Positions 17,057-63,574 of a stretch of 64,000 bases of DNA are shown here, in pieces. The notes below the pieces were generated by a model, which worked only from the letters and a program-made list of their open reading frames with translations, ran no database searches and was not told where the DNA came from. The translations under genes were made by a program, and so were the position numbers. The stretch's first letter is position 1; the number at the start of each line of letters is the position of its first letter. Source of the stretch: Polyangiaceae bacterium (lineage in GTDB: Bacteria; Myxococcota_A; Polyangia; Polyangiales; Polyangiaceae); NCBI GenBank assembly GCA_033763455.1, contig JANRKO010000062.1, forward strand, positions 1-64,000. The letters are read 5' to 3'.

Positions 17057-18547
17057 ATGGGAGCAGTCCTGGTGACTTGGTTTGGTACAACCGACCTGCG
17101 CGCGGCGAAGGGCGAGGCCACTGTTGGTCTCGGTCCCGTGGCGCAGGCGGCCAAGGTTCGGGACTTCGAACAAATTGTCTTGGTCACCAACTACTCCAAA
17201 GCTGACACGCAGCTGTTCGTGGGCTGGCTAAAGAAGCAAACGTCTGCGCCGATCGTGGTCCGCACTGAGAAGCTCAGCTCACCCACCCATTATGGCGATA
17301 TCTATCGGGCCGTAACGAACACCCTGGAGTGGTTAGTCCCCAGCATCAGTCCCAAGACGCGTCTGACGTTTCACCTGAGCCCCGGTACACCCGCCATGGC
17401 CGCCATATGGATCCTGGTGGCTCCTCGGTACGGAGCCGAGCTGATCCAGTCATCCAAGGAAGCGGGGGTTGAGGCGGCGAACGTCCCGTTCGAGATTGCT
17501 GCGGAGTTCGTGCCTGCACTTGTTAGGCAAGGCAACGCCAAGTTGGAGGAGTTTGCCGCGGGTGCTCACCCTGAGGACCCGAGCTTCGCCAACATCATTG
17601 GGCGAAGTGACGCAGTTGCAACCATGGTTGAGCGGGCCCGTCAGGCTGCGCCTTACTTGGCGCCAGTTCTGATCGAAGGCGAATCCGGCACCGGAAAGGA
17701 GCTCCTCGCGGCAGCGGTGCATCACGCCAGTGCTCGGAAAGGGGAATTCGTGCCGGTGAATTGCGGAGCGATCCCGAGAGAACTGGTTGAGTCGACGTTC
17801 TTCGGGCACGTGCAAGGCGCGTTCACGGGCGCCAAGACCGCCTCCATCGGTGCCTTCCAGCGCGCCAACGGAGGTACGTTGTTCTTGGATGAAGTCGGAG
17901 AGCTGCCTCTAGAAGCGCAAGTAAAGCTGCTGCGCGCGCTTCAGGAAAAGAAGGTACAAAGGGTTGGCTCAAGCACCGAGACAGCAGTCGACGTGCGGGT
18001 GGTGGCAGCGACAAATCGCGATCTGATGGCCGAGGTTACGGCGGGGCGCTTTCGGGAGGATCTCTACTTCCGTCTCGGAGTTCTGCTCTTGCGCACCCCG
18101 CCGCTGCGCGACCGAGAGGGCGACGTATTGCTCTTAGCGGATCGCCAGCTTGACGCTCTCAACGCGGAGCGTCCCACTACCCAGCATAAGAAACTTTCTG
18201 CTGGGGCAAAATCTCTTCTCCTCAGACAGCCGTGGCCCGGGAATATTCGGGAGCTGCAGGCGACGCTGCTCCGGGCTTTTGTGTGGTCCAAGGGGACGTC
18301 GATCGACGAGAAAGCGCTGGCGGCGGCGCTCATTGTCCGAGCCACGATGAAAGATAGAGATGTACTCCACCGGCCGCTCGGAAATGGCTTTAAACTACAG
18401 GATTCGCTCGGGGAGGTTATCCGCCACTACCTCACCCGGGCGGTCGAAGAAGCCCACGGCAACAAGACCAAGGCCGCCGAGCTCATCGGCTTTACGCACT
18501 ACCAAACGCTCACGAACTGGGCGAAGAAGTATGGGGTGGAATTGTGA
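17057..18547 (+). CDS. Sigma54-dependent activator with RtcR-like CARF sensor, AAA+ domain and Fis-type HTH
   Basis: LTFHLSPGTPAMAAIWILV (RtcR/CARF-like), GESGTGKE, PVNCGAIP, intact GAFTGA, LFLDEVGE, FREDLYFRL, WPGNIREL, GNKTKAAELIG. Start ATG 17057 lies 7 nt after a TATGCT -10-like hexamer. Confidence 0.88.
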   Translation: MGAVLVTWFGTTDLRAAKGEATVGLGPVAQAAKVRDFEQIVLVTNYSKADTQLFVGWLKKQTSAPIVVRTEKLSSPTHYGDIYRAVTNTLEWLVPSISPKTRLTFHLSPGTPAMAAIWILVAPRYGAELIQSSKEAGVEAANVPFEIAAEFVPALVRQGNAKLEEFAAGAHPEDPSFANIIGRSDAVATMVERARQAAPYLAPVLIEGESGTGKELLAAAVHHASARKGEFVPVNCGAIPRELVESTFFGHVQGAFTGAKTASIGAFQRANGGTLFLDEVGELPLEAQVKLLRALQEKKVQRVGSSTETAVDVRVVAATNRDLMAEVTAGRFREDLYFRLGVLLLRTPPLRDREGDVLLLADRQLDALNAERPTTQHKKLSAGAKSLLLRQPWPGNIRELQATLLRAFVWSKGTSIDEKALAAALIVRATMKDRDVLHRPLGNGFKLQDSLGEVIRHYLTRAVEEAHGNKTKAAELIGFTHYQTLTNWAKKYGVEL

Positions 18548-18563
18548 TGGAACGAATCCTGCT
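18548..18563 (+). promoter_or_regulatory. Candidate sigma54 (-24/-12) promoter for the hsdR-hsdM-hsdS operon
   Basis: TGGAACG-AATC-CTGCT with GG (18549-50) and GC (18561-62) exactly 10 nt apart; begins right after the activator stop codon. Confidence 0.6.
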
Positions 18564-18599
18564 GATAGCTCGGGCATGTCTCACGGCGAGGTCCCGTTC

Positions 18600-21500
18600 A
18601 TGAAGTCGCAGAACTTTGAGTTCCTGCGCGCGAAGCGGGCCGTCCTCGCGGATCTGGGCGGGTTCGCCGAACAGTACGCACACTCGGATCCACAAGCCTC
18701 CCTGTTCAAGCAACGAGCTTTCGTCGAAAACGTGGTCGTCGCAATCTATACGGCGTACCGACTTCAGCCGCCTTTTTCAGACAACCTCAACGACCTCATG
18801 ATCGCCGACCCGTTTCGGGAATCTGTGCCCGACGTTGTTCAAAACAAGCTGCACACTGTGCGGAAGGCGGGGAACGCGGCCGTACACCCGCGCCAACCGA
18901 TCGCGAGCCAACAGGCTCTCGATTGCCTGTACGAGTTGTTTGATGCGGCGCGCTGGTTCTACCTCAAGGTTGATGGTGGCAAACGTGAGGACACGCCGAC
19001 GTACGCGCCACCGCAACCTTCGGGCGCCACGAACGGGAAGGCAAAGGAGGCGCTCGAAAAACTCCGCCTTTCGGAGGCGAAGTACGAGTCCGTACTTGCT
19101 GCACTTGAGGATGAGACCAAGAAGCGGCTCGCGGCTGAACGGGCCTCCGCAGTGCACGCCACCGAGCTCACCCAGCTCAAAGATGAGGGGCAGAAAGTTG
19201 CGACGTTCCTCCAGTTCAACGAAGAAACGACACGACGCCGACTTGTCGATCAGGCACTCATCGCGGCTGGATGGAATGTTGGCGAGGCGGGCAAAAACAC
19301 AGAACAAGTGAAACAAGAGCTGCCTCTGTCGGGGCTCCGTTCCACCAAATCCGGCGAAGGGCGCGCCGACTACGTCCTTTACGGCGATGACGGCAAACCA
19401 CTCGCCGTCGTCGAAGCCAAGCGCACAGCGAAGGACGTCCACGAAGGTGCTGAACAGGCCCGTGACTACGCCAACGCGTTGGAAAAAAAGGCTGGCGTTC
19501 GCCCGGTCATCTTCTTCACGAATGGCGCCGAGACTTTCCTATGGGACGACGCGCAAGGATATGCGTGGCGGAAAGTCTACGGCTTCTACTCGAAGGACAG
19601 CCTCGAGTATCTGATACACCAACGGACGAACAAGACACCTCTGGCCACAGTAGAGGCGAACCTTGCCATCGCAGACCGAATCTACCAACTTGAGGCCGTA
19701 AAACGCGTCACCGAACGCTTCGAGAGCAAAGTTCGCAAGGCGCTCATCGTTCAAGCAACAGGCACAGGTAAGACGCGTGTGGCCATTTCCCTTTGCGACG
19801 TTGTGATGCGTGCGGGCTGGGTGAAACGGATCCTCTTTCTGTGCGATCGGCGGGAGTTGCGTAAACAGGCGGACCGCGTCTTCAAGGAGTTCATGCCTGG
19901 CGAACCCCGCATCATCGTCGGCAAAGATACGTCGAGCGATCGCGGTAAGCGCATTTACCTCGCCACTTATCAGTCGATGATGGAGTGCTTCGAAGATTTT
20001 GACGTCGGCTTCTTCGACTTGATCATCGCCGACGAAGCGCATCGCAGCCTGTACAAGAAGTACCGCAGCATTTTTCAGCACTTCGACGCGCTCGAAGTGG
20101 GGCTAACAGCGACGCCGGTGCGTTTTATTGAACGAAACACCTACGGCATGTTTGGTTGCGAAGACCGCGACCCCACCTCCCATTTTAGTTTCGACGACGC
20201 TATCAGCGCCAAGCCGTCCTTTCTCGTTCCATTTCGAGTGATGGCGGTGAGCACCAACTTCAGTCGAGGCGGCTTTCGGTACAAGCAGATGACACCTGAA
20301 CAACAGGCTCAGCTTGAGGACCAAGAGCCGCAGGCTGAGCACGTTGACTACGAGAGCACTGATCTCGACAAACACTTCTTCAACCGAGACACGACCCGCC
20401 TGATCTGGCGCTCCCTTCTTCAGGATGGCATTCGCGAGGCGACTGGCAGTCATATTGGCAAGACCATCGTTTTCGCCAGAAGCCACACGCACGCGGTGCA
20501 CCTTGCAGATGTGTTCAGCGAGCTTTATCCCCACCACGGCTCGGTGTTTTGCCGAGTCATCGACAACAAGGAGCCGAGGGCGGAGCAGCTCATTGACGAT
20601 TTTAAGGATCCCGAGAATGAGCTCACGATTGCCATATCGGTTGACATGCTCGATACGGGCATCGACGTGCCGGAGGTGGTGAACCTCGTTTTCGCCAAGC
20701 CGGTTAAGTCTTACGTGAAGTTTTGGCAGATGATTGGACGGGGCACTCGCCTCCGGAAAGACCTATTTGGCCCGGGGCGGGACAAGACGGAGTTCCTGAT
20801 CTTCGATCACTGGAAAAACTTCTGGTTCTTCGATGAAAAGTACCAGGAAAAGGAGCCCTCGCCGCAAAAATCGCTGCTTCAACACCTCTTCGAGGCCCGC
20901 ATTGAGTTGGCGCGAACCGCGCTCGACAAGATGGAGCAAGATGTATTTCAAGCCGCCGCTGGGCTGATCATCGGCGACATTCGAGCGGTCGTGGACACCA
21001 ATGCCATCGATGCTCGCGATAAACGGCGTGAACTCGAAATGCTGACTGACCCGAACAGGGTGCACCACTTCGCGGCGGCCACACAGGCGGACTTGCTCTC
21101 GATTGCTGCGCCTCTCCAGCGTCTGCGAAGCATTCGCGGTGAAGAAGACGCCTACCGATTCGATCTACTGATGACGCGTCTGGAACTTGAGGTGCTCCGT
21201 GGCGGTGCAGAGGCGCCCAGGGTCCAGGATCTGCGTGCCCGCGTTGAAGCGGCTGTTGAGCTGCTCGCCAAAAACCAGAATCCGGTCAGAGCCAAGGCTG
21301 AGTCCATCAAGCAGGTGGGGAGCAGGGCGTTTTGGGCCACCGTGCAGGTCCACGAGTTAGAGGGCATGCGACGCGAGCTGCGCGGTATTATGAAGTATCA
21401 GCAGTTCGCGCCAACCGGCAGGGTCGCCCCGCGGATTTTCGACGTTACCGACACCGATTTTACCGCGGAAGAGTATGTTCCTCGTCTGGAAGGCTTGGAT

Positions 21501-22016
21501 CTCGTGGAGTACAAGCGCCGGGTCGAAGCGGTGCTTGAGGCGCATTTCGCCGAAAATCCTGTCCTTCAGCGCCTTCGCGCTGGAAACGCCGTGCGCGAGG
21601 ACGAGCTTGAGGCCCTGGCGAAGTTGGTGCTTGAGGTTGACGATAGGGCTAACGTCAAGTTCCTCATGGGGCATGACCCCGAGACCCGCCGCTCGCTGCT
21701 CACAGTGTTTCGCGGCCTAGTGGGCTTGGATGCTGAGGCTGTTGAGGAAGCCTTCACGGCTTTCGTCCATAGCCACCCGCGCCTTTCCGCGCAACAGCTG
21801 CGTTTCCTGCAGGTGCTTCAAAACTACATCGCCCAGAACGGCGGCATCGAGATAGAACGCCTGTACGAGCCACCCTTCACCACCATCCACGCCGAGAGCA
21901 TGGACGGCATTTTCACTAACCAGAAGGATCTGGATGAGCTACTCGCCATCCTCTCTACCTTCGAACCGAGGCGCGCGCTCCCGAGTGACCGCCCGCCTAC
22001 AAGCCAAGCCCTATGA
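18600..22016 (+). CDS. hsdR: Type I restriction enzyme R subunit (EcoAI/EcoEI-like); alternative in-frame ATG at 18576
   Basis: ADYVL...VVEAKR nuclease motif, [44 protein letters not shown] before 18600. Confidence 0.95.
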
Positions 22017-23554
22017 GCACACTGACAACGCAGCAGAAGAGCGACATCGACAAGCTCTGGACCGAATTTTGGACGGGCGGCATCACCAACCCCCTCACCG
22101 TGATCGAACAGATCTCGTTCTTGATGTTTGCGCGCCTGCTCGACGTGATGGAGACAACCGGAGAGCGCCGAGCCGAGCGCACGAAAAAGCCATTTAAGGG
22201 GCGTTTTAGCGGCCCTGACGACAAACGGCGTTGGAAGAACTTCAAGCACCTTCCGGCCACCGTCACCGATTCGGATCGAAGACAAAAACGCCAGAGCATG
22301 CTGGAAGTGGTGCGGGATGACGTGTTTCCACACTTCAGAAAGCTCAACGGCGGCACCACTTTCGGCGAGTACATGCAGGACGCCCAGCTCATGGTGCAGA
22401 AGCCGAGCCTGTTGGTGTCCGCTGTGAACATGATCGACAAGCTGCCGATCACTGAGGGCGACGCCAAGGGCGACCTCTACGAATACTTACTCGGCAAGCT
22501 CACCACCGCGGGGATCAATGGGCAGTTCCGCACGCCACGCCACATCATCCGCTTCATGGTGGAGATGCTGGACCCGAAACCAACAGAAACAATCGCCGAT
22601 CCGGCATGTGGTACCGCGGGTTTTCTCGTGGGTGCCATGCAGTATCTGGTAGAGACGCACACCTCGGCCAAGGGGAAAATTAAGGGAGAAAACGGGGAGA
22701 TCGTCTTCACCGGGGACAAGCTGGAGCCTTACCGAGCTCACATCCAGAACGGCATGTTTCACGGCTTCGATTTCGACGCCACCATGCTGCGCATCGCCTC
22801 GATGAATTTAATGCTTCACGGTGTCGATAGCCCGGACATTCACTATCAGGACACGCTCTCTAACTCGTTCCCCGAGAAGTTCCCGAAACAGGCAAGCGGC
22901 GGCTTCGATGTCGTCCTCGCTAACCCGCCGTTCAAGGGCAGCCTGGATGAAGGAGATGTTCATCCGACGCTTACGCAGGCAGTGAAAACGAAGAAGACCG
23001 AACTGCTCTTCTTGGCCTTAATTCTCCGAATGCTGAAGAAGGGCGGGCGGAGCGCGACGATTGTTCCTGATGGCGTGCTCTTTGGTTCGTCGAAGGCGCA
23101 CCGCGCTTTGCGAGAGCTACTCGTGAAGGACAACCAGCTCGAAGCGGTGATCTCGCTGCCTTCGGGGGTGTTCAAGCCGTATGCCGGCGTGTCGACGGCG
23201 ATCGTGGTGTTTGCGAAGGGCGGAAAAACGGACCACGTGTTCTTCTACGATGTTGGCGCAGATGGCTTTTCGCTCGACGATAAGCGGGACCCGATCGGTG
23301 ACAACGATTTGCCGGATGCATTGGCATGTTGGCGGAATAAAAGCGCGAAGAAGGATACGGACCGTTCGGCGAAGCACTTCATGGTGCCGTTGAAGGAGAT
23401 CGAAGCGAAAGATTTTGACCTCTCGATCAATCGCTACAAGGAGACGAAGCACGAAGAGGTGAAATACGAATCGCCCAAGAAGATTATCGCGAAGTTGCGC
23501 GCGCTTGAGGCGGAGATTGCGAAGGATTTGAGTGAGTTGGAGGGGATGTTGTGA
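22013..23554 (+). CDS. hsdM: Type I R-M N6-adenine methyltransferase
   Basis: [39 protein letters not shown] overlap with hsdR. Confidence 0.96.
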
Positions 23555-24975
23555 GCCTCGGGGAGACGCACCTGGTGGAATGGAAGGAGTCTTGGCGCGA
23601 CGAGTATTTGCGCTGGATCTGCGGATTTGCCAACGCCGATGGCGGGACATTGATCATCGGTAAGAATGACAAGGGCGAATCCGTGGGTGCGCCGGATGCG
23701 CACCGGCTGCTGGTGGATTTGCCGAACAAGATTCGCGATACGCTGGGTATCGTTGCCACGGTGCGGGCCATTCAAGAGGCGGGTCAAACGCTTGTCGAGA
23801 TCGGGGTGGAAGCATCGGCGGTTCCCATCAGCTTCCGCGGTGAGTACCATTTGCGCTCGGGCAGTGCGAAGTTGCAACTCACAGGTAACGCGCTCTCGGC
23901 ATTCTTGCTAAAGAAGTTCGGCCGTCACTGGGATCATGCGCCCGTTCCAGGGGTGTCGGTCGACGACCTGAGCGCCGAGGCCTTCAAGCGCTTTCGACGC
24001 TTCGCTCGCGGACGAGACCGTGTACCGTCGGAGGCGCTGGCACTCACCGACGGCCCTATGCTGGACAAACTGCAGCTGATGGACGGTGGTTGGCCGAAGC
24101 GCGCGGCACTTCTGTGTTTTCATGAGGAACCGGAGCGCTGGTTCACGGGTGCCTACGTCAAGATCGGCATGTTTCGTACCGGCGCGCAGATCCTCTACCA
24201 GGATGAGATCCACGGCGATCTGTTCTTGCAGATGGAGAAGACGCTGGATCTCTTGTTCACCAAGTATATGTCTGCGTGGATCACGTTTCGCGGCGTGCAG
24301 CGAGTCGAGACATTTCCGATTCCATACGAGGCGATGCGTGAGGCGCTGCTGAACGCGCTCATTCACAAGGACTACGCCTCGGGCATTCCGATCCAGATCA
24401 AGGTTTTCACCAGCGGCCTTTCGATGTGGAACCAAGGGCCTCTGCCAGAGGGCTGGACGGAGGCCACCTTACTGGGGCACCACCGCTCGCAGCCGCGGAA
24501 CCCAGATATTGCGAGCACCTTCTTTCGCGCCGGGCTCATCGAATCATGGGGCCGTGGATACGAGCACATCATGGAAGCGTGTCGGGAAAGTGGCCGGTCG
24601 CTGCCGGTTGTGAAATCCGACCCGAGTGCGGTCGGTATCACGTGGACGTGGCAGGCCGACGGTACCGGGGAAGTCACCCCGGAAGTCACCGGGGAAGTCA
24701 CCGAACAAGTTACCGAACAAGTCACCGAACAAGTCACCGAACAAGTCGTGAAGCTGTTGAACGCGCTTGGGCCGGGAGATCACTCCGCTGCCGAACTGAT
24801 GCGGACGCTTGAACTGCGCCATCGGCCCACGTTCCTTTACGCATATTTGCAGCCTGCTCTGGCGCGGGAGTTCATCGCGATGACCATTCCCACCAAGCCC
24901 AACAGTCGCCTGCAGAAGTATCGCCTGACCGCCAAGGGTCGTGCGTTGGTTGGGCATATGAGGCGAGAAACATGA
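23551..24975 (+). CDS. AlbA_2 (Schlafen-like) + HATPase_c_4 (RecG-C-like) + C-terminal winged helix protein
   Basis: [12 protein letters not shown]...[56 protein letters not shown]...[14 protein letters not shown]. Confidence 0.85.
24664..24747 (+). repeat. Seven tandem 12-bp units (ACC-NNN-SAA-GTY) encoding T-x-E/Q-V
   Basis: accggggaagtc, accccggaagtc, accggggaagtc, accgaacaagtt, then accgaacaagtc x3. Confidence 0.95.
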
Positions 24976-25112
24976 GAGGCGCGACGGTGAATGCGATGGA
25001 AGCGGAGTACGAAGCGGTTAAGTATGAGTCGCGGGGGAAACTTGTTGCGAGGGTGTGGGAGCTTGAGGTGGAGATTGTGAAGGAGTTTAGTGAGTTGGAG
25101 GGGATCCTGTGA
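24972..25112 (+). CDS. 46-aa ORF paralogous to the HsdM C-terminus (absent from the supplied ORF track)
   Basis: [46 protein letters not shown]; 20/37 aa identical, ungapped, to the HsdM end; ATGA overlap upstream and GTGA overlap with hsdS. Confidence 0.6.
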   Translation: MRGATVNAMEAEYEAVKYESRGKLVARVWELEVEIVKEFSELEGIL

Positions 25113-26263
25113 CTGTCAGCCCTTCCAAACTCGGGACCAAGTGGCCGCGCGTTGTTCTCAATGACGCCGTCGAGTTTCTCGACCATATGCGCAGGCCGAC
25201 CACCGCGAGCGATCGCGAGCCGGGACCGTACCCGTACTATGGCGCGAATGGCCAACAGGACTCGGTGGCTAAATACATATTTGACGAACCCCTGATCCTT
25301 TTAGCGGAGGACGGCGGCCACTTCGGAGACCCCGCGCGCGGCGTCGCGTACGGCGTGCAGGGAAAGTGCTGGGTCAATAACCACGCGCACGTGCTCCGAC
25401 CGAAGGCAGACTTCGACTTCAGGTTTTTGAAGTGGCACCTCGCACACTACGATCTGGCAGGGTTCGTCAATGGAACCACCAGGGGTAAGCTGACCAAGGG
25501 CGCAGCGGAGCGTATTCCTCTGGTGAAGCCCCCGCTCCCCGAGCAGCGCCGGATCGCCGACATCCTCGACAAGGCCGACACCATCCGCCGCAAGCGCAAG
25601 GAGGCCATCGCCCTCACGGAGGAACTCCTGCGCTCCGCATTCTTGGAAATGTTCGGCGATCCGGTGACGAATCCGAAGGGGTGGGAGGTGAAGCCGCTGG
25701 GTGACCTCGGGCGAATCACGACCGGGAACACACCTTCCCGCGCGGTGGGTGAGTACTTCGGAGCCGACATCGAGTGGATCAAGTCGGACAACATCAACAC
25801 GCGCAGTCACTACCTCACGCGAGCTACTGAGGGGCTCTCGGACCAGGGCCGCGCAATCAGTAGAACTGTGCCTGCAGGTAGCACCCTGATGACCTGTATC
25901 GCAGGTAGCCCCGATTGCATTGGCAATGTCGCTCTTGCCGATCGGGAGGTGGCATTCAACCAGCAGATAAATGCTGTGACTCCTCATGAGGGCGTTGACC
26001 ATCGCTTTCTCTACGTACTGCTCCTCGTCGGAAAGCGCCTCGTCCAGGCGGCTTCCACGAACAGCATGAAGGGCATGGTCAGCAAGGGGAAGCTCGAGGC
26101 CGTTCTGGTGCCTTCGCCTCCCCTGAAGGCGCAGAGCCAGTTCGCGGAAGTGTTTGATCGCGTATTGCGCCTGAGCCGCCGACAAGAAGTCGCGCAAGGG
26201 GAAGCGCTGATGCTATTCGATACAATGGTGCATCGCGCGTTCTCGGGAGGGCTCACCCCATGA
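25109..26263 (+). CDS. hsdS: Type I R-M specificity subunit (two TRDs)
   Basis: PYYGANG/WVNNHAHVL TRD1, PPLPEQRRIADILDKAD...EMFGDPVTNPKGW spacer, TGNTPSR/FNQQINA TRD2. Confidence 0.95.
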   Translation: MTVSPSKLGTKWPRVVLNDAVEFLDHMRRPTTASDREPGPYPYYGANGQQDSVAKYIFDEPLILLAEDGGHFGDPARGVAYGVQGKCWVNNHAHVLRPKADFDFRFLKWHLAHYDLAGFVNGTTRGKLTKGAAERIPLVKPPLPEQRRIADILDKADTIRRKRKEAIALTEELLRSAFLEMFGDPVTNPKGWEVKPLGDLGRITTGNTPSRAVGEYFGADIEWIKSDNINTRSHYLTRATEGLSDQGRAISRTVPAGSTLMTCIAGSPDCIGNVALADREVAFNQQINAVTPHEGVDHRFLYVLLLVGKRLVQAASTNSMKGMVSKGKLEAVLVPSPPLKAQSQFAEVFDRVLRLSRRQEVAQGEALMLFDTMVHRAFSGGLTP

Positions 26264-27237
26264 CCTGGGACGCCGCGGGACGCACAGTAGCCCAACCTAC
26301 CATCGCCACGGTGGGCGGAACAAGCATTGCCGCAGGCGCTCAAGTTCACATCGACCTCTCTTTTGGCATGGTTGAGTGGCCATGGGAAGAAAAGGGGCCC
26401 GTCTCGCTCGTTCCTCAGCCAAGCGAGGTAACTGCACGCACGGATCGGGGCGAGCTCAGCCTTGGTTTTGCAATTCCGGCACCAGCTAGCGTGCTCACGC
26501 CTGCGGAGCATTCGTCAACAGGCATCATTCGGTTCACGCTGTCGCTCAGTACGTTAGCCCTCGTCGAGCTCGAGGCCACGCGCAACGGTGGCGCACTCAC
26601 GCTCATTATGCAACTCGTGGCGCATCCACTGTTTATCACCCGATCTCAGGAATATTCTCCTGGAATCAACATTTACCCGACCAGCGTTTCCTTCCCCTTC
26701 AAAGTTCCCAAGGAGGAGTGGATCGCGTTGCTCAAGAGCGTCGGATATTGTGACACGCTCGTCACGGAGCTGCGCTTGCCCACCTCGGGTCCCGAATCTA
26801 CCGCCAAGGGCCGGAAACGGCTCGCTCACGCAGTCAGTGCACGGAACGACGGCAGTTACGCCGAAGCCATGCGGCGCTGTCGCACTGCACTCGACGAGCT
26901 AAAGAACGCCGGGTTCGGGGGTAAAGCGCCCGCCGACGTCGCTAAATTCCTTCAGGAGAAGGCGGGCACGATGTTACCGGTCGAACGCTTCTCTGTCTTG
27001 CAGGTTGCGCTCCAGCTCTTCTTGTCACCAGCACATCACGCCAACGCACCAGATGAGCACTACACCCGCGAAGACGCCGAACTGGCGATCGCGATGACTG
27101 CCGCGCTGTTGCGGCTTGCACCTCAGCACGCCGACCGCCGGAGGACGGCATCTGATGCCCGGGCTGCATCATCTCGACGCCAACCTTCACGAGTTTCTGG
27201 AGGCCGCAGTATGGAACCTAAGAAACGAGAGGGATGA
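26260..27237 (+). CDS. Uncharacterised protein: beta-rich N-terminus and HEPN-like helical C-terminus
   Basis: ATGA overlap with hsdS; GSYAEAMRRCRTALD...SPAHH...TREDAELAIAMTAALL pattern. Confidence 0.5.
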   Translation: MTWDAAGRTVAQPTIATVGGTSIAAGAQVHIDLSFGMVEWPWEEKGPVSLVPQPSEVTARTDRGELSLGFAIPAPASVLTPAEHSSTGIIRFTLSLSTLALVELEATRNGGALTLIMQLVAHPLFITRSQEYSPGINIYPTSVSFPFKVPKEEWIALLKSVGYCDTLVTELRLPTSGPESTAKGRKRLAHAVSARNDGSYAEAMRRCRTALDELKNAGFGGKAPADVAKFLQEKAGTMLPVERFSVLQVALQLFLSPAHHANAPDEHYTREDAELAIAMTAALLRLAPQHADRRRTASDARAASSRRQPSRVSGGRSMEPKKREG

Positions 27238-27243
27238 TCAGTA

Positions 27244-28269
27244 ATGAACGAGAAACAGAAGAAGCTTGTCGCCGAGACCAAGGAATCTCTGCAGCGCATT
27301 CAGAACTTTGACGCAACGACCATCGCGCGAACCGATGAACTTGGGCGAGAGTTGAACTTTGCGCAGGGAGTGGAGCCGCTTGAACGTTCTCTTGCTCTAT
27401 TCCGAGAAGTCTCGGTGGACGTTCTCGAGAGCATGAGCGCCAGTAGCCTGAATCAGGTTAAGGGCCAATCGGACGCGTTGTTCAATCTGCTCCAGCAGAT
27501 GCTGAACTTCTCGGCGGCGGCAGAAGGGAACCCGAAGGCAACCCGCGATAGCCTCATTCAGCAGCTTGCCAATAGCTACGAAGGCACCTTTAACGACCTG
27601 TGTCCCACAATCGCGTATTCCGTGCGGCGTGCCACGGATTTTTCGCGCATGGAGCGCGAAGCTCGCGCGGCCATACAGTCGATCGAAGACCGGTCCAGGG
27701 AGCTCGAATCGAGCATGAAGGCGAAGCAGGAGGAAGCTGAGGCAGCTCTGGCGGCAATCCGAAAGGTTGCCGCCGAGCAGGGAGTGTCGCAGCAAGCGAT
27801 CTACTTTAGAGAGGAGTCTCAGACTCATGCAGATGAAGCCGAAAAATGGCTCAAATGGACCAAATGGCTGACCGTGGTTCTGGGACTGTTTGCCGGCTCC
27901 ACCCTCGTGCTCCACAAGGTTCCCTTGCTGCGCCCCGAGAATTCGGCTGAGGTGATCCAGTTCGCCCTGGGCAAGATGTTGGTATTCGCGACAGGCGCTT
28001 ATTTCCTGATTCTTGCCGCCCGCAACTACATGGCCCACCGGCACAACGCGATTGTAAACAGGCATCGCCAGAACAGCTTGATCACCTATCAGGCGCTCGT
28101 TGAGGCGGCGGGTGATCAGGCGAATCGTGATATTGTGCTCACGAAGGCGGCCGAGAGCATTTTTGGCGCACAAACGACCGGCTTCACCAAGCACGACGCG
28201 GATGAAGGGAAGGCGTTTTCGATGGTCAACTTAGGCACGAGTGCGCTGAAAGGGACAGGCTCGGGGTGA
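27244..28269 (+). CDS. Uncharacterised coiled-coil protein with two transmembrane helices
   Basis: MEREARAAIQSIEDRSRELESSMKAKQEE coil; hydrophobic WLTVVLGLFAGSTLVL and FALGKMLVFATGAYFLILAA. Confidence 0.7.
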   Translation: MNEKQKKLVAETKESLQRIQNFDATTIARTDELGRELNFAQGVEPLERSLALFREVSVDVLESMSASSLNQVKGQSDALFNLLQQMLNFSAAAEGNPKATRDSLIQQLANSYEGTFNDLCPTIAYSVRRATDFSRMEREARAAIQSIEDRSRELESSMKAKQEEAEAALAAIRKVAAEQGVSQQAIYFREESQTHADEAEKWLKWTKWLTVVLGLFAGSTLVLHKVPLLRPENSAEVIQFALGKMLVFATGAYFLILAARNYMAHRHNAIVNRHRQNSLITYQALVEAAGDQANRDIVLTKAAESIFGAQTTGFTKHDADEGKAFSMVNLGTSALKGTGSG

Positions 28270-28417
28270 AGGCGCGACAAGACGTGAAGGCGCAACGAGG
28301 CAACGTTGCTCATTTGGAGGGCAACCCGACGATTCGTCACGAGCCGTGCGATGAGTGGCGCAAGTGTTGGCAAGTTTATCACGGGGCGCGTGATGTTTTC
28401 GCCGCCAAGAGGGACGC

Positions 28418-29542
28418 ATGACGACCGCCCGCGGCAAGAAGCCAGCCTCGGTGAAGAAAACAGCGACGGCTCGGAAACGATCGACCGCGCTGTTGAAGCC
28501 CGACGCGGCATTCGCCTCGGAGTTGGTGCGCGACCTCTCGGAAATGATCGAGGCGGCCCAGAAGCAGGTCGCCACCGTCGCGAACGTGGCACTCACCGCG
28601 CTCCACTGGCAGATCGGTGACCACGTTCGCAGGCACGTGCTCGAAGGCCGCCGCGCGGAGTACGGCGGGCAGATTGTCTCCACGGTGTCGAGACAATTGG
28701 CAGAGCGCTACGGGCGCGGCTTCAACGAGAAATCGCTGCGCCACATGGTCCAGTTCGCGACCGCCTTTCCGGACCGCGAGATTGTCTCCACGGCGTGGAG
28801 ACAATTGACTTGGAGCCACTTCAAGGTGCTGGCATACCTCAAGGACCCCCTCGCCCGCGACTTCTACTTAGAGATGTCCCGCGTCGAGCGGTGGTCCGTG
28901 CTGCAGCTCGGTGAACGCATCCAGAGTATGCTCTTCGAGCGCACGGCGCTTTCGAAGAAGCCCGAGAAGCTTATTGAGGCGGAGCTCGCGACGCTGCACG
29001 AGACCGGCGAGCTGACGCTCGATCTCGTGATGCGTGACCCGTACATGCTGCCCTTCCTCGGGCTCGCCGACACCTACAGCGAGAGCGATCTCGAAGCGGC
29101 CATCCTGCGCGAGATCGAACGCTTCCTCCTGGAGCTGGGCGTGGGCTTCACCTTCGTCGAGCGCCAGAAGCGCATGACGCTCGACGGCGACGATCACTAC
29201 CTCGATCTCTTGTTCTTCCACCGCCGGTTGCGCCGTCTTGTCGCCATCGAGCTGAAGATCGGCGATTTCAAGGCCCAGGACTTGGGCCAAATGGAGTTGT
29301 ATTTGCGCTGGCTCGACAAGCACGAACGCCAGGTTAACGAAGAACCGCCGCTGGGCATCATCCTCTGCGCGGGCAAGAAGCGAGAGACGGTTAAGATCCT
29401 AAACCTCGACGCGCGTGGCATTCACGTCGCAGAGTACCTGACCGAGTTGCCACCCCGGAAGCTCCTCGAAGAGCGCCTGCACAAGGCCATCGAAAACGCT
29501 CGCAACGGGATCGTCAAAGGTAAGCTGGGAGGCCAGAGGTGA
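28418..29542 (+). CDS. yhcG: YhcG/DUF1016 family PD-(D/E)XK nuclease, copy 1
   Basis: LHWQIG, YGRGF, LTWSHF, RDPYMLPFLG, FLLELGVGFTFVERQ, DLLFFHRRLRRLVAIELK. Confidence 0.92.
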   Translation: MTTARGKKPASVKKTATARKRSTALLKPDAAFASELVRDLSEMIEAAQKQVATVANVALTALHWQIGDHVRRHVLEGRRAEYGGQIVSTVSRQLAERYGRGFNEKSLRHMVQFATAFPDREIVSTAWRQLTWSHFKVLAYLKDPLARDFYLEMSRVERWSVLQLGERIQSMLFERTALSKKPEKLIEAELATLHETGELTLDLVMRDPYMLPFLGLADTYSESDLEAAILREIERFLLELGVGFTFVERQKRMTLDGDDHYLDLLFFHRRLRRLVAIELKIGDFKAQDLGQMELYLRWLDKHERQVNEEPPLGIILCAGKKRETVKILNLDARGIHVAEYLTELPPRKLLEERLHKAIENARNGIVKGKLGGQR

Positions 29543-30729
29543 CGCGGCCGACGATCTCACGAAAGAAGGTCGGGTCGAAGTCCAAGATCTCCCGTGGGGT
29601 GACTGCACCAATTCATCAACAGCCTGTTGGCGAATCGGCCGCGGGTTTGGTTACGCGCCCCAAAGGCTACGCCGGCTGGCTCGCGGAAGTGAAGGCGCGC
29701 GTCCAAGCGGCGCAGCAGCGCGCAGCGCTTGCCGTGAACAAGGAGTTGCTGAAGCTCTATTGGCAAGTGGGCCGAGATCTCAGTGACCGACGTCATGAAT
29801 GGGGCGCTGGCGTCATTGAGCGGGTGTCCGCGGACCTGCGCGCAGCCTTTCCGGAAATGCAGGGGTTTTCGCCGTCGAACCTTCGCTATATGCGCGCGTT
29901 TGCTGAGGCTTGGCCCGACGGCGCAATTCACCAACAACCTGTTGGTGAATTGCCTTGGGGTCACAACGTCGTGCTCCTGACGCGACTCAAGAACAGAACC
30001 GAACGACTTGCCTATGCGCAAGCCGCCCTGACACACGGCTGGTCCCGCAACGTCCTCGACCACCACATAGATCTTCGCACTGTCGAGCGCTCGGGAAAAT
30101 CCATCACGAACTTCGAACGGCAACTGCCCAAGCTGCAGTCGGATCTTGCGCGCGAGTCGCTGAAGGACCCCTACCGCTTCGACTTCCTGAGCCTTGGCGA
30201 CGAAGCGCACGAACGCGAGATCGAGACTGCGCTGGTGAAGCACGTCAAGCAGTTTCTGCTTGAGCTGGGAACGGGATTCGCGTTCGTCGGGCGCCAGCGG
30301 CTGCTCGACGTCGGCGGCGATGAGTTCTTTATCGACCTGCTCTTTTATCACCTCAAGCTACGCCGCTACGTGGTTATCGAGCTTAAGGCGACGAAGTTCA
30401 AACCAGAGCACCTGGGTCAACTGGGCTTCTACTGCACAGCGATCGACGCACAAGTAAAGGCCGACGATGACGCTCCGACCGTTGGCCTTCTCCTGTGTAA
30501 GACGAAGAATGAACTCGTTGCCGAGTACGCTGTGCGAAGTTCGACGAGCCCGATCGGAGTGTCGGAGTACCGGCTCGTAGAATCGCTGCCGAAGGACCTT
30601 GAAGCCAGCCTGCCGAGCATCGCGCGCATCGAGGAAGAGCTGAGCAGGTTGCCAACACCAAGGCCATCCCCGCGTGCCAAGAAGAATGCAACCAAGAAGC
30701 AGATCGACAAACGGAGAAGTCGCCGATGA
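29539..30729 (+). CDS. yhcG: YhcG/DUF1016 family PD-(D/E)XK nuclease, copy 2
   Basis: LYWQVG, GFSPSNLRYMRAFA, LPWGHN, KDPYRFDFL, FLLELGTGFAFVGRQ, DLLFYHLKLRRYVVIELK; GTGA overlap with copy 1. Confidence 0.92.
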   Translation: MTRPTISRKKVGSKSKISRGVTAPIHQQPVGESAAGLVTRPKGYAGWLAEVKARVQAAQQRAALAVNKELLKLYWQVGRDLSDRRHEWGAGVIERVSADLRAAFPEMQGFSPSNLRYMRAFAEAWPDGAIHQQPVGELPWGHNVVLLTRLKNRTERLAYAQAALTHGWSRNVLDHHIDLRTVERSGKSITNFERQLPKLQSDLARESLKDPYRFDFLSLGDEAHEREIETALVKHVKQFLLELGTGFAFVGRQRLLDVGGDEFFIDLLFYHLKLRRYVVIELKATKFKPEHLGQLGFYCTAIDAQVKADDDAPTVGLLLCKTKNELVAEYAVRSSTSPIGVSEYRLVESLPKDLEASLPSIARIEEELSRLPTPRPSPRAKKNATKKQIDKRRSRR

Positions 30730-30938
30730 ATGAACATCAGATTGCGTCCTCAGTTGGCGAGGCCTCGAACGTTGACGGTGGAGTCCTGAGCCACCAAAAC
30801 TCTCAACACCGTTGAGAGAAATTCACGCCACGGCCATCGCGAACTTAATGGGGGATACGTTGTCGAGTCGAGCAACCCGCGTCTGAACCTGGGCGGTCTC
30901 CGCTGGCGTTTTACGGCACACTGTGAAATCAGCAGCCA

Positions 30939-31009
30939 TGAACCAGGTGGCGCCCAGTTGGATGCTGAGCCACACCGTGCCGGATCGAAATAGTGAGGCT
31001 GAACGCGGC
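30939..31009 (+). repeat. Right copy of the 71-bp SDR-derived direct repeat (gene fragment)
   Basis: Encodes NQVAPSWMLSHTVPDRNSEAERG versus NQVAPGWVVSHDVPDGNSEAERG in the SDR. Confidence 0.9.
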
Positions 31010-31091
31010 ACAAACCAATACCTGCGATTCCTGCTGTTTCCCTGTTGGCCCGAGAAATATCATCTTGTGAAATCAGAAGTTCCGCTGCCGA

Positions 31092-31710
31092 ATGCGTGTG
31101 TGGTCAATCCCAACAGTTGTTTTCGAGGAATTGCTCGTCAACGCGCTCGTACACCGTGACTACCTGATCAGCGCGCCGATCCGACTCTTTATGTTTGACG
31201 ACCGCATCGAGATCATCAGTCCGGGCACGCTTCCAAACAATCTCACCGTTGAGAACATCTGTGCGGGCAACTCGAACTTGCGCAACCCGATCCTTGCGAG
31301 CTTCGTTGCGAAGGGCGTGCTGCCGTACCGTGGCCTCGGATCGGGCGTCCCGCGCGCGCTCGAATCCTGGCATGACATTGATTTCCGCGACGACCGCAAC
31401 GGAGGCCTCTTTGTGGCCACCGTTCGGCGGTCACCTGGTAATTTACGGGGTAGAGGGCAAGTCACTGTGGGCGCTACCGCGCAAGCTACCGCGCAAGTCC
31501 GAGAGTTGATCGAACAGCTCGAAGGCGAACTTACGACAGCAGGCCGTGGGCCTCACCCACCGGGAGCACTTCCGCAAGGCCTACCTTCTTCCCGCGCTGG
31601 AGTCCGGCCTGATTGAGATGACCCACCCTGAAACGCCGAACAACCAGAACCAGCGATACCGCCTTACGCCGGCCGGCAAGGCCCTGCGCTCGAAGCGCAG
31701 AAAGTTGTGA
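31092..31710 (+). pseudogene. 5'-truncated, frameshifted HATPase_c_4 / winged-helix gene of the same family as 23551-24975
   Basis: EELLVNALVHRDY, RIEIISPGTLP, RNPILAS, GSGVPR; the tail HREHFRKAYLLPALESGLIEMTHPETPNNQNQRYRLTPAG is in another frame, ending TGA 31710. Confidence 0.8.
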
Positions 31711-31840
31711 CCCGCTTGAATGCGCTCACCACGCTCCCCTGGCAGTTCGACCACAACCTCCCCACGACGGGGTCGAGCGCTGCGGGGAGTACGACGGGCA
31801 GATTGTCTCCACGGCGCGGAGACAATTGGCGGAGCGCTAG
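31707..31840 (+). pseudogene. Decayed yhcG 5' remnant
   Basis: NALTTLPWQ resembles VALTALHWQ of yhcG copy 1; DNA gagtacgacgggcagattgtctccacggcgcggagacaattggcggagcgcta resembles 28658-28710. Confidence 0.75.
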
Positions 31841-31925
31841 CATCAGCACTCGAGGCTTGAGCCGCAGCTTGGCACCAGCCCCCCCTTTATTGACCCCGTT
31901 TAGCGCACTGATGTCACTCTGAGCC

Positions 31926-32981
31926 ATGCATTGCCAATGTCTCGAATCGCGGGTTTTCAGGTGGAGTTGCGCGGGCTTGCTTGGCGTAACCTCTGTGGCG
32001 CTCGGTTGCGGCTCAGATGGTACTGTCCGCCCAGTACGAGGGTCGTACGCTGAAACAGGTGGTGCAGGGGTCACGGTTGGCAACTCGACTGGAGGCGGTG
32101 GGGGGTCCGGTGGTAGCGCTCCGGGGAAGGTGGGTACCGGAGGCACGGCAGGCAGCGGAGGCTCAAATTCAGGTGGAACAGGCGGCAAGTTAACGTCGAT
32201 GGGCGGCTCAGGCGGGGTTCCTTCGGTTCCGACCGGTGGCGCAAGTAGCACTACCGGTGGAGTGGGCAATTCGACGGGGGGAGCTCAGGCCGCCTCGGGT
32301 TGCGCGAATTCAAGCTATCTTCTCTGTGAAGACTTCGAGGGCACAGCGGTGGGGGCAATTCCCGCCGGCTGGACAAAACAAGGTGCGACCGGCGTGGTAG
32401 AAGACAACGCGCGGAATGGCACCCGTTCGCTCAAAGTAGAGCCAGCAACGAACGGACCACGAAGGATTTTGCACCCCGCAGAGACCTTTGGAAGCAAGCA
32501 CTGGGGTAGGATTTTTTATAAGCTACAGCTGCCGGTGCCCGATGCTTTTGTGCACTCGACGTTGGTGGCACTTTCTGGAAACGGCCCCAACATTGGGGCA
32601 GCAGAATATCGCGTTGTGGATACCGTGAAGCAGGCCGTGGATACGCAAGATGTGGGCTCGCGCTATCAATTTTTGTTTAATGTGCAGCCGCAAAATAGTG
32701 CAGAGTTCGGCACCGGCACGAATTATGATCGGCCGTTTGACGGCGAATGGCACTGCGCGGAGTGGAACATCGACGCCGCCGATCAATCTTACCGGATGTA
32801 CTGGGACGGCACCGAGATGCTCAACTTCACTCGCGGAGCCGGCAATTACGCTGGCTCGGAAATCCCCAATGAGTTTGGCGAGATCAGAGTTGGGCTGAAC
32901 AATTACCAAGCGGCTCCGCCCGGATTCACCGTTTGGATCGACGATATTGCGATTTCGGCGGCTCGGGTGGGGTGCCAGTAG
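31926..32981 (+). CDS. Secreted lipoprotein with a Cip1/polysaccharide-lyase-like beta-sandwich domain
   Basis: ALGC lipobox, Gly-rich linker, LCEDFE, ARNGTRSLKV, WHCAEW, WIDDIAIS...RVGC. Confidence 0.6.
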   Translation: MHCQCLESRVFRWSCAGLLGVTSVALGCGSDGTVRPVRGSYAETGGAGVTVGNSTGGGGGSGGSAPGKVGTGGTAGSGGSNSGGTGGKLTSMGGSGGVPSVPTGGASSTTGGVGNSTGGAQAASGCANSSYLLCEDFEGTAVGAIPAGWTKQGATGVVEDNARNGTRSLKVEPATNGPRRILHPAETFGSKHWGRIFYKLQLPVPDAFVHSTLVALSGNGPNIGAAEYRVVDTVKQAVDTQDVGSRYQFLFNVQPQNSAEFGTGTNYDRPFDGEWHCAEWNIDAADQSYRMYWDGTEMLNFTRGAGNYAGSEIPNEFGEIRVGLNNYQAAPPGFTVWIDDIAISAARVGCQ

Positions 32982-63127: not shown

Positions 63128-63574
63128 CTAGCCATCGACCGCATTGGGGAGCTCGTTCTTATCGGTAACCGCCTTGCGCGGGAAGTGGTGCGAGAGCTGA
63201 GCTCCTGCGGCGGAAATGGCAGCGACTAAACCCGCCGTGAACTCCCCACGCTTGAAGTGTTCGGTGAGGATGGCCGCGAGAGCCTCCCAGAACTCTTGCC
63301 CCACGTGGGCATGAATACCTTCATCGCCCAGCACCGCGAAGGCTCGGCGTGACGGCACCACGAAGAACAACACGCCGTTTCGATCTTGGGTCTTCGTCAT
63401 GCCGAGGCGCACGAATGCGCGATCTGCCGCACGCTTCACGTTGCCCCAAAAGTATGGCGCCAAAGACACACGGATTTCCCCCGAGGTCTGGAGTTCCGCT
63501 TGTGCTATCGCTTGTTGAATCAACTCGCGATCGACCCAAGTAGAGTTCTTCTTTCGACCAAACCACAGCATCAT
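63128..63574 (-). CDS. TPM domain protein (small partner)
   Basis: AELQTSGEIRV, GMTKTQDRNGVL, GDEGIH, NELPN. Confidence 0.88.
   Translation of the reverse strand: MMLWFGRKKNSTWVDRELIQQAIAQAELQTSGEIRVSLAPYFWGNVKRAADRAFVRLGMTKTQDRNGVLFFVVPSRRAFAVLGDEGIHAHVGQEFWEALAAILTEHFKRGEFTAGLVAAISAAGAQLSHHFPRKAVTDKNELPNAVDG

Follow-up and report, generated by a model that had tools for sequence, protein, structure and literature searches.

A covarying palindrome written into the signature motif of yhcG (DUF1016) nuclease genes

Genes of the YhcG/DUF1016 family carry, in the nine codons that precede the W-S/G-H motif, an in-frame DNA palindrome of 25 bp whose symmetry is kept while its sequence and the encoded peptide change. 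We describe this element in a stretch of 64,000 nucleotides (nt) from a Polyangiaceae bacterium (assembly GCA_033763455.1, contig JANRKO010000062.1, positions 1 to 64,000; hereafter the window), which contains two tandem yhcG genes, and in relatives of these genes from bacteria and archaea. Selection or copying at the nucleic-acid level is established, and a protein-only cause is excluded; the DNA symmetry largely dictates the signature peptide of the family (IVATLSRQL, IVQQAVGQL and others), codon and amino-acid choice both being bent to keep it. A sequence-only reading of the window had proposed that the constraint acts on the nucleic acid rather than on the peptide, and this proposal is strongly supported across the family by synonymous resampling, by pair counting and by the comparison of Escherichia coli alleles. 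The two genes and the palindromes of the window are the following.

28418..29542, + strand: yhcG1, DUF1016_N and YhcG_C domains, PD-(D/E)XK nuclease gene (Pfam E values 9.9e-40 and 1.2e-45)
29539..30729, + strand: yhcG2, tandem paralogue of yhcG1; its GTG start overlaps the yhcG1 stop (GTGA)
28673..28697: yhcG1 site 1, 10/12 pairs, in frame, encodes IVSTVSRQL (residues 86-94)
28781..28805: yhcG1 site 2, perfect 12+1+12 palindrome, encodes IVSTAWRQL (residues 122-130), directly before T-W-S-H
29611..29635: yhcG2 upstream copy, 10/12 pairs, encodes IHQQPVGES
29923..29953: yhcG2 site 2, perfect 14+3+14 palindrome, encodes (A)IHQQPVGEL(P) before W-G-H
31802-31826: remnant palindrome, 11/12 pairs, one base off 28781-28805

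All five sites have the coordinates and sequences that the sequence-only reading had given them, and the arms of the 29926 palindrome, said there to reach 14 nt, do so at 29923-29953 (the inner 29926-29950 is perfect as 11+3+11). Site 2 of yhcG1 reads ATTGTCTCCACG-G-CGTGGAGACAAT, with perfect arms of 12 nt, and differs from site 1 of the same gene at two bases; the upstream copy of yhcG2 (29611-29635) differs from 29926-29950 at three bases. This upstream copy falls in an N-terminal extension, possibly a 5' leader, the Pfam domain beginning only at residue 50, and similar motifs are present in the N-terminal extensions of about 20 among 120 relatives listed. BLASTP aligns IVSTAWRQL of yhcG1 opposite IHQQPVGEL of yhcG2 in the same register; therefore two different palindromes occupy homologous codons before W-x-H, as had been supposed. 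Judging from the homology that surrounds it, the palindrome at 31802-31826 is part of a gene fragment and no free-standing site, and no dispersed copy was found within the 64 kb beyond the yhcG loci and this remnant.

Such symmetry is rare in the window. In its whole length, 10 or more of 12 complementary pairs are reached by only six 25-mers, and five of them are the yhcG-type sites; the sixth lies at 63507-63531 (ATCGCTTGTTGAATCAACTCGCGAT). A perfect 12+1+12 palindrome is expected by chance about 0.004 times per 64 kb (4^-12 x 64,000), and neither palindrome pattern was matched in 100 dinucleotide-preserving shuffles. When the codons were redrawn 100,000 times with the peptide fixed and the window's own codon usage, the observed symmetry had P values of 0.00001 (28781), 0.00054 (28673), 0.0010 (29926), 0.021 (29611) and 0.00001 (31802). 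Rare codons are used in these palindromes, for example AGA (5% of Arg codons) and TTG (19% of Leu codons). An antisense open reading frame (ORF) of 146 amino acids (28379-28819, minus strand) covers both yhcG1 palindromes exactly opposite the yhcG1 codon frame; it may be a mere by-product of G+C content and symmetry.

The family is large: a search of 1.84 billion protein representatives matched 19,591 cluster representatives at E<=0.001. DNA loci were collected by scanning genome contigs with a nine-sequence alignment; 596 of 601 candidate stretches were confirmed and the best 80 loci were kept, with hosts from many bacterial phyla as well as methanogenic archaea. After de-duplication, 76 distinct genes (74 loci and the two window genes) formed the set in which symmetry was scored. 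The location of the palindrome is fixed in these genes, 25 bp in frame over the nine codons before the W-S/G-H motif (site 2). Codon-aligned symmetry was far above that of the synonymous and shuffled controls that the sequence-only reading had put forward as a test: site 2 has a mean of 10.24 Watson-Crick pairs out of 12, compared with 5.23 after synonymous resampling with each gene's own codon usage and with 3.04 at the other in-frame 25-mers of the same genes (n=24,596), only 0.09% of which reach nine pairs. Twelve pairs are formed in 16 genes, 11 in 32, 10 in 11, nine in nine and fewer in eight; symmetry is significant at P<=0.05 in 71/76 genes and at P<=0.001 in 47/76. Two of these last eight (L074 and L080, with scores of 3 and 2) were counted as misses, although they are mis-registered and have their true palindromes a few codons away. 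At site 1, about half of the genes are palindromic (mean 7.63 pairs compared with 4.44 after resampling; P<=0.05 in 40/75). Genes on plasmids, of the yhcG2 and E. coli types, have the site-2 palindrome in 12 cases out of 14. Altogether, an in-frame palindrome with 10 or more of 12 pairs is present at least once in 90 of 97 genes, 24 of them having two and one having three.

The two arms change together. In an alignment of 89 sites, 91.3% of cells are paired, compared with 65.1% in shuffled controls, and none of 500 shuffles reached the observed value; the covariation score is 0.635 (0.165 in shuffles), and two-sided changes were observed at all 12 pairs (255 cells compared with 78). Sliding the partner arm by one to three columns lowered the paired cells to 29-49%. 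The codons follow the same rule. Ile at codon 1 is ATT in 61/64 genes, against a background of 0.38 elsewhere in the same genes, and Leu at codon 9 is TTG or TTA in 70/73 genes, against a background of 0.31. Amino acids are affected as well: V or G at position 2 occurs with Q at position 8, and H, R or L with E, while I (ATT) at position 1 occurs with L (TTG) at position 9, and F (TTT) with I (A..). These residues co-vary because the bases that encode them pair in an offset frame. Relatives of yhcG1 mostly have IVATLSRQL or a variant of it at site 2, and many have it likewise at site 1; relatives of yhcG2 have IVQQAVGQL, FVQQPVGQL, DRQQAVGEL and similar peptides at site 2. A perfect 12+1+12 palindrome could encode the site-2 peptide of 47/98 and 84/120 proteins, as against 0.3-0.4% of their other 9-mers.

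A purely protein-level constraint, or coincidence, would hold that a conserved peptide happens to be encodable as a palindrome. The peptide is indeed conserved and, in the structural models described below, structured at both sites. However, with the peptide held fixed the resampled sequences reach only about half of the observed pairing, residue pairs change as offset-frame complementarity predicts (I..L and F..I; V..Q and H/R..E), and symmetry is kept in non-coding copies. We therefore regard this explanation as refuted.

The general form of the element is an odd palindrome of 25 bp, ATTGT-N4-5-core-N4-5-ACAAT, with the cores CA-C-TG (yhcG1 type), CAG-C-CTG (yhcG2 type) and CAGAC-N3-GTCTG (E. 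coli type). The outer bases and the core are fairly constant, and pairs 4 to 10 are free, each with three or four Watson-Crick types. A second copy is found in many genes, 108 nt upstream of site 2; where both sites are palindromic (32 genes), their centres are 108 nt apart in 29. The sequence-only reading had noted that each window gene carries a second copy of its own version, and this generalizes: in the 32 genes, the two sites of one gene differ on average at 4.28 of 25 bases, compared with 8.14 between genes (none of 10,000 permutations gave so low a value), and the flanks of the two sites are unrelated, with 17 of 24 bases mismatched. Site 2 is still palindromic where site 1 has been lost (yhcG2, L069-L079). 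Tandem paralogues carry different versions of the palindrome, as in the window pair and in L019. A second yhcG gene in tandem, or an N-terminal fragment of one, adjoins the main gene at L019 1120-2130, L024 2925-3510, L045 5071-5595 and L043 3989-4246, and has in each case a palindrome different from that of its neighbour.

Copies are also present beside the gene. In a Methanoregula contig (L021, about 2838-2910), three overlapping non-coding units stand about 80-150 nt before the yhcG ATG, and the two that were scored resemble the gene's own site 2 with 5 and 9 differences; a non-coding copy is found 160 nt upstream in L086, and another 3 nt beyond the ORF end in L054. Over 533,516 nt of flanking DNA, the unit was found only in yhcG genes, in their remnants and in the immediate flanks. 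The genes around yhcG vary from locus to locus (hsdM, integrase, parAB, or none), so that YhcG is the sole constant partner of the palindrome. At two plasmid loci a tyrosine integrase gene overlaps the yhcG start by 4 nt (L091 835-2034, L093 697-1896), and at a third a serine recombinase gene overlaps the yhcG stop (L094 2927-3502). On a Moraxella plasmid (L083 1891-1961), two near-identical palindromes, AAACTGTGGCAAATTGCCACAGTTT (12/12), lie between parB and yhcG; they are unrelated to the yhcG site and may be partition sites. Relatives were found in only 13 of 50,697 phage records.

The yhcG gene of E. coli K-12 (b3220) has four copies, which are the following (positions in locus L095).

13130-13233: three in-frame palindromes, at gene positions 303, 342 and 381, with a period of 39 nt
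13970-13994: fourth copy, non-coding, perfect 12+1+12, 15 nt past the yhcG stop

The fourth copy is located in a gap of 59 nt ahead of the convergent gene nanQ. On inspection of the sequence, the arms of the three in-frame palindromes reach 15-16 nt, and the core CAGAC-N3-GTCTG is common to all four copies. The non-coding copy was matched in 4,431 of 5,426 complete E. coli genomes and on no plasmid. Matching genomes have it at a median of 3 and a maximum of 6 places, which indicates that the unit is not dispersed like repetitive extragenic palindromic (REP) elements. It exists in two forms, ...CTGCAG...CTGCAG... and ...CTCCAG...CTGGAG..., both 12/12, related by a compensatory change from G:C to C:G. 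Palindrome 1 occurs as CGCC...GGCG (12/12), as GTGC...GCAC (12/12) and, in K-12, as CACC...GGCG (11/12). An arm variant found at one position in one E. coli allele may stand at another position in a second, and the base at the centre alternates between G and C. In proteins of the E. coli type the palindrome region is a Pro/Ser/Thr-rich repeat that looks tolerant of change.

Mismatches were used to compare DNA and RNA as the medium in which the arms pair. Outside the innermost pair, the 68 good site-2 palindromes have nine G:T mismatches, 15 A:C and 37 others, and pairs 1-11 of the 89-site alignment have 17 G-U cells compared with 85 unpaired ones. The lack of a G:T excess favours DNA, because a selected RNA stem would be expected to tolerate G-U; coding constraints make this less than decisive. 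As single-stranded DNA, the 28781 site folds at -10.6 kcal/mol and the 29923 site at -15.1 kcal/mol (z about -4.3). No Rfam 15 covariance model matched either strand of 28000-32200 at E<=1. Four terminator-like sites were found in 28000-32000 (4.1 expected by chance), none of them at a palindrome and with no T-run there, and a promoter scan found no promoter-like site at the window palindromes.

Both window proteins belong clearly to the family. Their Pfam bit scores (136.3 and 155.7 for yhcG1, 135.0 and 205.0 for yhcG2) exceed the gathering cut-offs of PF17761 and PF06250 (32.8 and 32.5 bits), they match the PADLOC profile PDC-S02 (E of 6.2e-123 and 1.1e-152), which has the status of a candidate defence gene, and they share 34% identity by BLASTP; no NCBIfam model matched either of them. 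The catalytic columns E226, E239, D263, E278 and K280 (yhcG1 numbering), which correspond to the motif E...D...(E/D)xK as given in the available text of PMC1189080, are intact in 97/97 genes, so that a comparison of palindrome loss with loss of catalytic residues carries no information. An AlphaFold2 model of YhcG has a helical N-terminal domain and a PD-(D/E)XK C-terminal domain (mean predicted local distance difference test, pLDDT, 80.7). Site 1 of yhcG1 is modelled within helix 81-98, at the predicted dimer interface, and site 2 as a short helix (120-126) and a loop before helix 132-139, with pLDDT above 90.

A symmetric YhcG homodimer is supported by structure prediction. The homodimer scored 0.61, compared with 0.00 for the best of three controls, a score reached by 20 of 30 proteins solved as same-chain pairs and by one of 23 solved as single chains; three runs shared at least 83% of contacts, with partner pLDDT of at least 75. 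The predicted interface consists of helix 30-75 and of residues 86, 89-90, 93-94 and 97-98 of the site-1 helix. Foldseek matched the C-terminal domain only, to the Cas4-family ACE1, MGME1, AdnAB and NucS/EndoMS (5gke, 2vld, 9iab); with 5gke, 104 columns were aligned at a root-mean-square deviation of 3.9 and a probability of 1.00. Template modelling (TM) scores of the matches were low (0.2-0.3). The N-terminal helical domain of about 200 residues had no convincing Foldseek relative, and a sequence search of the PDB gave no match at E<=1. The available text of Kosinski et al. (2005; PMC1189080) places the domain nearest to YraN/archaeal Holliday-junction-resolvase-like and DUF91 nucleases. In that of Hu et al. 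(2009; PMC2672614), a yhcG deletion is synthetically lethal with dnaB, dnaN and parE hypomorphs, and YhcG is linked with HsdMRS, McrABC, IntF, IntS and PinE.

Several truncated yhcG copies end at palindromes. In the window, the homology of a yhcG1-like remnant ends at 31839, 13 nt past its palindrome; fragments in L024 and L043 stop 7-15 nt after site 2, and a fragment in L092 begins at a palindrome. In E. coli B-type strains, homology to K-12 runs up to the 3' end of palindrome 3 and stops exactly there; in strain T16R, the end of an IS1 abuts base 4 of palindrome 3 (L096 2930-2960; L097 2486-2510). Past the break, the B-type strains have about 470 nt of unrelated DNA with an ORF of 101 amino acids, annotated 'transposase' and without a Pfam match. 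Six truncated copies are thus broken at a palindrome or within 15 nt of one. These cases are anecdotal, having been found while looking near palindromes, and other fragments are broken elsewhere (L045, L014, L028, L032; H82, H83, H85); that the palindromes are fragile is therefore suggestive only. Mosaic genes were looked for by comparing the identities of N-, middle and C-segments over 4,560 gene pairs. The correlations were 0.68-0.74, outlier pairs were mostly genes with frameshifted or truncated N-termini, and in sliding profiles identity increased gradually towards the C-terminal domain, without a step at site 2.

What maintains the symmetry has to be specific to the YhcG family, since such palindromes are otherwise nearly absent; together with YhcG being the only partner common to all contexts, this favours a cognate cis site for a dimeric nuclease. 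We give not quite an even chance to the following form of this reading: the palindrome would be a hairpin-capable cis site recognized by the gene's own dimeric nuclease, probably for self-control, its symmetry being kept by arm-to-arm copying. The site would be able to form a hairpin or a cruciform, and the product recognizing it is predicted to be a symmetric homodimer with a NucS/Cas4-like PD-(D/E)XK domain. Most probably the site would let a nuclease that may be toxic, and that moves between foreign operons as a cassette of one gene, control itself: by binding or cutting its sites within the ORF and next to it, the enzyme could exert negative feedback without a promoter of its own. DNA would be favoured over mRNA as the medium, and symmetry would probably be renewed by template switching at the hairpin and by conversion between copies. 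A wider version of the same idea, which we put forward tentatively and hold to be doubtful, is that of a self-referential pair. In it, the dimeric enzyme would recognize, cut or stall on its own sites, and template-switch repair would re-copy the arms and spread the unit nearby; enzyme and site would co-diversify rapidly, giving orthogonal pairs in tandem paralogues, and the signature peptide would be a by-product. That each YhcG may recognize, copy or rewrite its own palindrome was the functional proposal of the sequence-only reading; its support is indirect, from the predicted symmetric homodimer, the likeness of the nuclease domain to NucS/EndoMS and Cas4, the non-coding copies next to the gene, and the E. 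coli arm variants that turn up at more than one position. The likeness of copies within a gene, and the difference between tandem paralogues, likewise tie the palindrome to the gene itself. The sequence-only reading had also considered a diversifying tag, for which we found no support, neither a reverse transcriptase nor other diversifying machinery being present among the neighbour genes scanned.

Several observations weigh against a cis site read by the nuclease. Seven of the 97 genes lack a strong palindrome and keep all their catalytic residues, so that the palindrome is not strictly required. Copies within one E. coli gene differ at bases 4-6, where each is self-complementary, a pattern more in keeping with pairing within a strand or copying between arms than with recognition of a single fixed sequence of 25 bp. 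In a comparison of seven E. coli alleles, 35 of 100 columns in the palindromes were variable, compared with 127 of 1088 elsewhere, with symmetry retained; a plain operator would be expected to be conserved. Copy spacings of 108, 39, 23 and 315 nt have no common helical phase. The innermost pair would leave a loop of 1 nt, too small for a hairpin to form. Of 73 genes, 50 have A at the four-fold degenerate base of this pair, 21 have G and two have C (background A 0.17, G 0.29), a bias explained by no single model. Finally, the site-1 peptide lies in the predicted dimer interface, which suggests that the peptide also serves the structure of the protein and is no helix for reading DNA.

The main rival, unlikely in our judgement, is a self-perpetuating palindrome without function, which arose as a chance quasi-palindrome in a permissive linker and was kept by template switching and conversion, the covariation being of mutational origin. 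Quasi-palindromes are known to be corrected to perfect ones by template switching. Strict Watson-Crick pairing with no G:T excess agrees with this explanation, as do the E. coli sites, which vary three times more than the rest of the gene and remain symmetric: their differences at bases 4-6 fit it well, their arm variants recur at different positions in different alleles, their centre base switches between G and C, a change that inverting the unit would bring about, and the region that contains them looks tolerant of change. However, its cause would have to be specific to one family and one position, as no other 25-mer of the window exceeds 10/12 pairs and hardly any other in-frame 25-mer of the family genes reaches nine. 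The palindrome is moreover kept in 90/97 genes of bacteria and archaea at 30-60% protein identity, and its apparent fragility, truncations ending at palindromes, would give retention a cost that calls for a benefit. New copies outside the ORF are left unexplained by correction in place.

An mRNA hairpin acting without YhcG, which would tune translation, make ribosomes pause at the domain boundary or direct decay (for example by RNase III on a site 1-site 2 duplex), appears quite improbable. All copies, non-coding ones included, do lie within or very near the transcription unit, the stems are stable (by DNA parameters only), and two like palindromes should, from their sequence, be mutually complementary over 25 nt. 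These points are opposed by the absence of G-U enrichment (A:C mismatches outnumber G:T, 15 to 9), by the 1-nt loop that the innermost pair would leave, and by the lack of an Rfam match or a terminator-like T-run; besides, site 2 is palindromic where site 1 is lost, which means that a long-range duplex is not a conserved feature. Slightly less probable still is a site of recombination or breakage, at which partner recombinases or host hairpin processing would exchange, truncate and duplicate yhcG cassettes. It would account for the six truncated copies (window 31839, L024, L043, L092, E. coli B-type and T16R), for the recombinase genes that overlap yhcG in L091, L093 and L094, for the ties of YhcG to IntF, IntS and PinE in the available text of Hu et al. 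(PMC2672614), and for the frequency of tandem paralogues (window, L019, L024, L045). The breakpoint cases are anecdotal, however, with other fragments broken elsewhere; identity profiles have no step at site 2, and no recombinase is found near most loci. In addition, known recombinase core sites have a spacer of 6-8 bp or of 2 bp, which the 12+1+12 form does not have.

The other genes of the window with a bearing on the yhcG pair are listed below; assignments in the restriction-modification operon are from Pfam.

18360..26263, + strand: type I restriction-modification operon, 5' of two further ORFs and of the yhcG pair
18360-22016, + strand: hsdR
22013-23554, + strand: hsdM
23551-24975, + strand: intact AlbA_2/HATPase_c_4/Fic-like_C gene within the restriction-modification operon
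25109-26263, + strand: hsdS
26260-27237: ORF of 325 amino acids between hsdS and yhcG1
27244-28269: ORF of 341 amino acids between hsdS and yhcG1
31089-31704: decayed, frame-broken second copy of the AlbA_2-type gene, 3' of the yhcG pair
31722..31839, + strand: yhcG1-like gene remnant of 118 nt, directly after the decayed AlbA_2-type copy

The two ORFs between hsdS and yhcG1 had no Pfam, PADLOC or NCBIfam match, one sub-threshold DUF2937 hit apart. The remnant is 78.7% identical to nt 172-293 of yhcG1 over 122 aligned columns, and together with the decayed AlbA_2-type copy it looks like what is left of an earlier copy of the island.

The literature searched on YhcG, DUF1016, PDC-S02 and coding palindromes or inverted repeats gave no description of the YhcG palindrome. 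The closest published phenomena are the coding palindromes of hairworms and the Rickettsia palindromic elements (RPEs), which both differ from it in length and distribution and have no tie to a single family. In hairworm (Nematomorpha) mitochondria, according to the available text (2019, PMC6649704), inverted repeats of up to 284 bp lie inside ORFs and are spread over many genes; as in YhcG, both arms are in a functional ORF and secondary structure is preserved together with protein sequence. Unlike them, the YhcG unit is of 25-33 bp, is confined to one gene family and one codon position, is found in bacteria and archaea, and has extra copies beside the gene. RPEs, as described in the available text of PMC4316617 (citing Ogata et al. 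2000/2002), are about 100-150 nt long and occur in one genus, in many unrelated genes and RNAs and in intergenic regions; they too are palindromic DNA tolerated in frame in ORFs, and selfish behaviour has been proposed for them. The YhcG unit, in contrast, is short (25-33 nt), lies in the conserved core motif of its family and is not dispersed.

Among other known systems, REP elements are short hairpin palindromes with many extragenic copies (tens to hundreds), and their partner RAYT is an HUH/Y1 enzyme. The likeness to YhcG lies in short hairpin-forming palindromes that adjoin the gene of a nuclease thought to act on them and that differ in sequence by lineage; unlike RAYT, YhcG is a PD-(D/E)XK enzyme, and its copies are mostly inside the ORF and not dispersed. 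No HUH (Y1) transposase-like gene was found among the window yhcG genes, which have only DUF1016_N and YhcG_C, or the neighbours scanned. Other cis sites lie within transcription units: lac O2 is inside lacZ, and RNase III and RNase E act on hairpins of their own mRNAs. By analogy, feedback by a gene's own product or by a regulator on a site within its transcription unit would be the favoured mechanism for YhcG. We know of no evidence that lac O2 or the RNase III and RNase E sites impose co-varying amino acids on a signature motif or are conserved across domains of life. EndoMS acts as a dimer and cleaves the two strands at positions symmetric to a central base pair, a geometry that would match an odd palindrome. 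The catalytic domain of YhcG is predicted to have the same fold as NucS/EndoMS and Cas4; YhcG differs from them in having no PDB sequence match (E<=1), an unmatched N-terminal domain and TM-scores of 0.2-0.3.

In conclusion, YhcG is a clear case of a large family of proteins whose conserved signature motif is set by a constraint on the nucleic acid and not by what the protein does. Covariation-based contact prediction, scans of non-synonymous to synonymous substitution rates (dN/dS) and codon optimization will misread such palindromic regions. The palindrome gives a concrete handle on an uncharacterized nuclease of restriction-modification and defence islands, and E. coli K-12 yhcG with its four copies makes it readily testable. 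Should the enzyme indeed act on the palindrome in its own gene, mobile nuclease genes would have a mode of self-control or self-propagation that is new; and should enzyme and site form a self-referential pair, the two would represent a new class of genetic element, autoregulated and in part self-propagating, which E. coli K-12 possesses.

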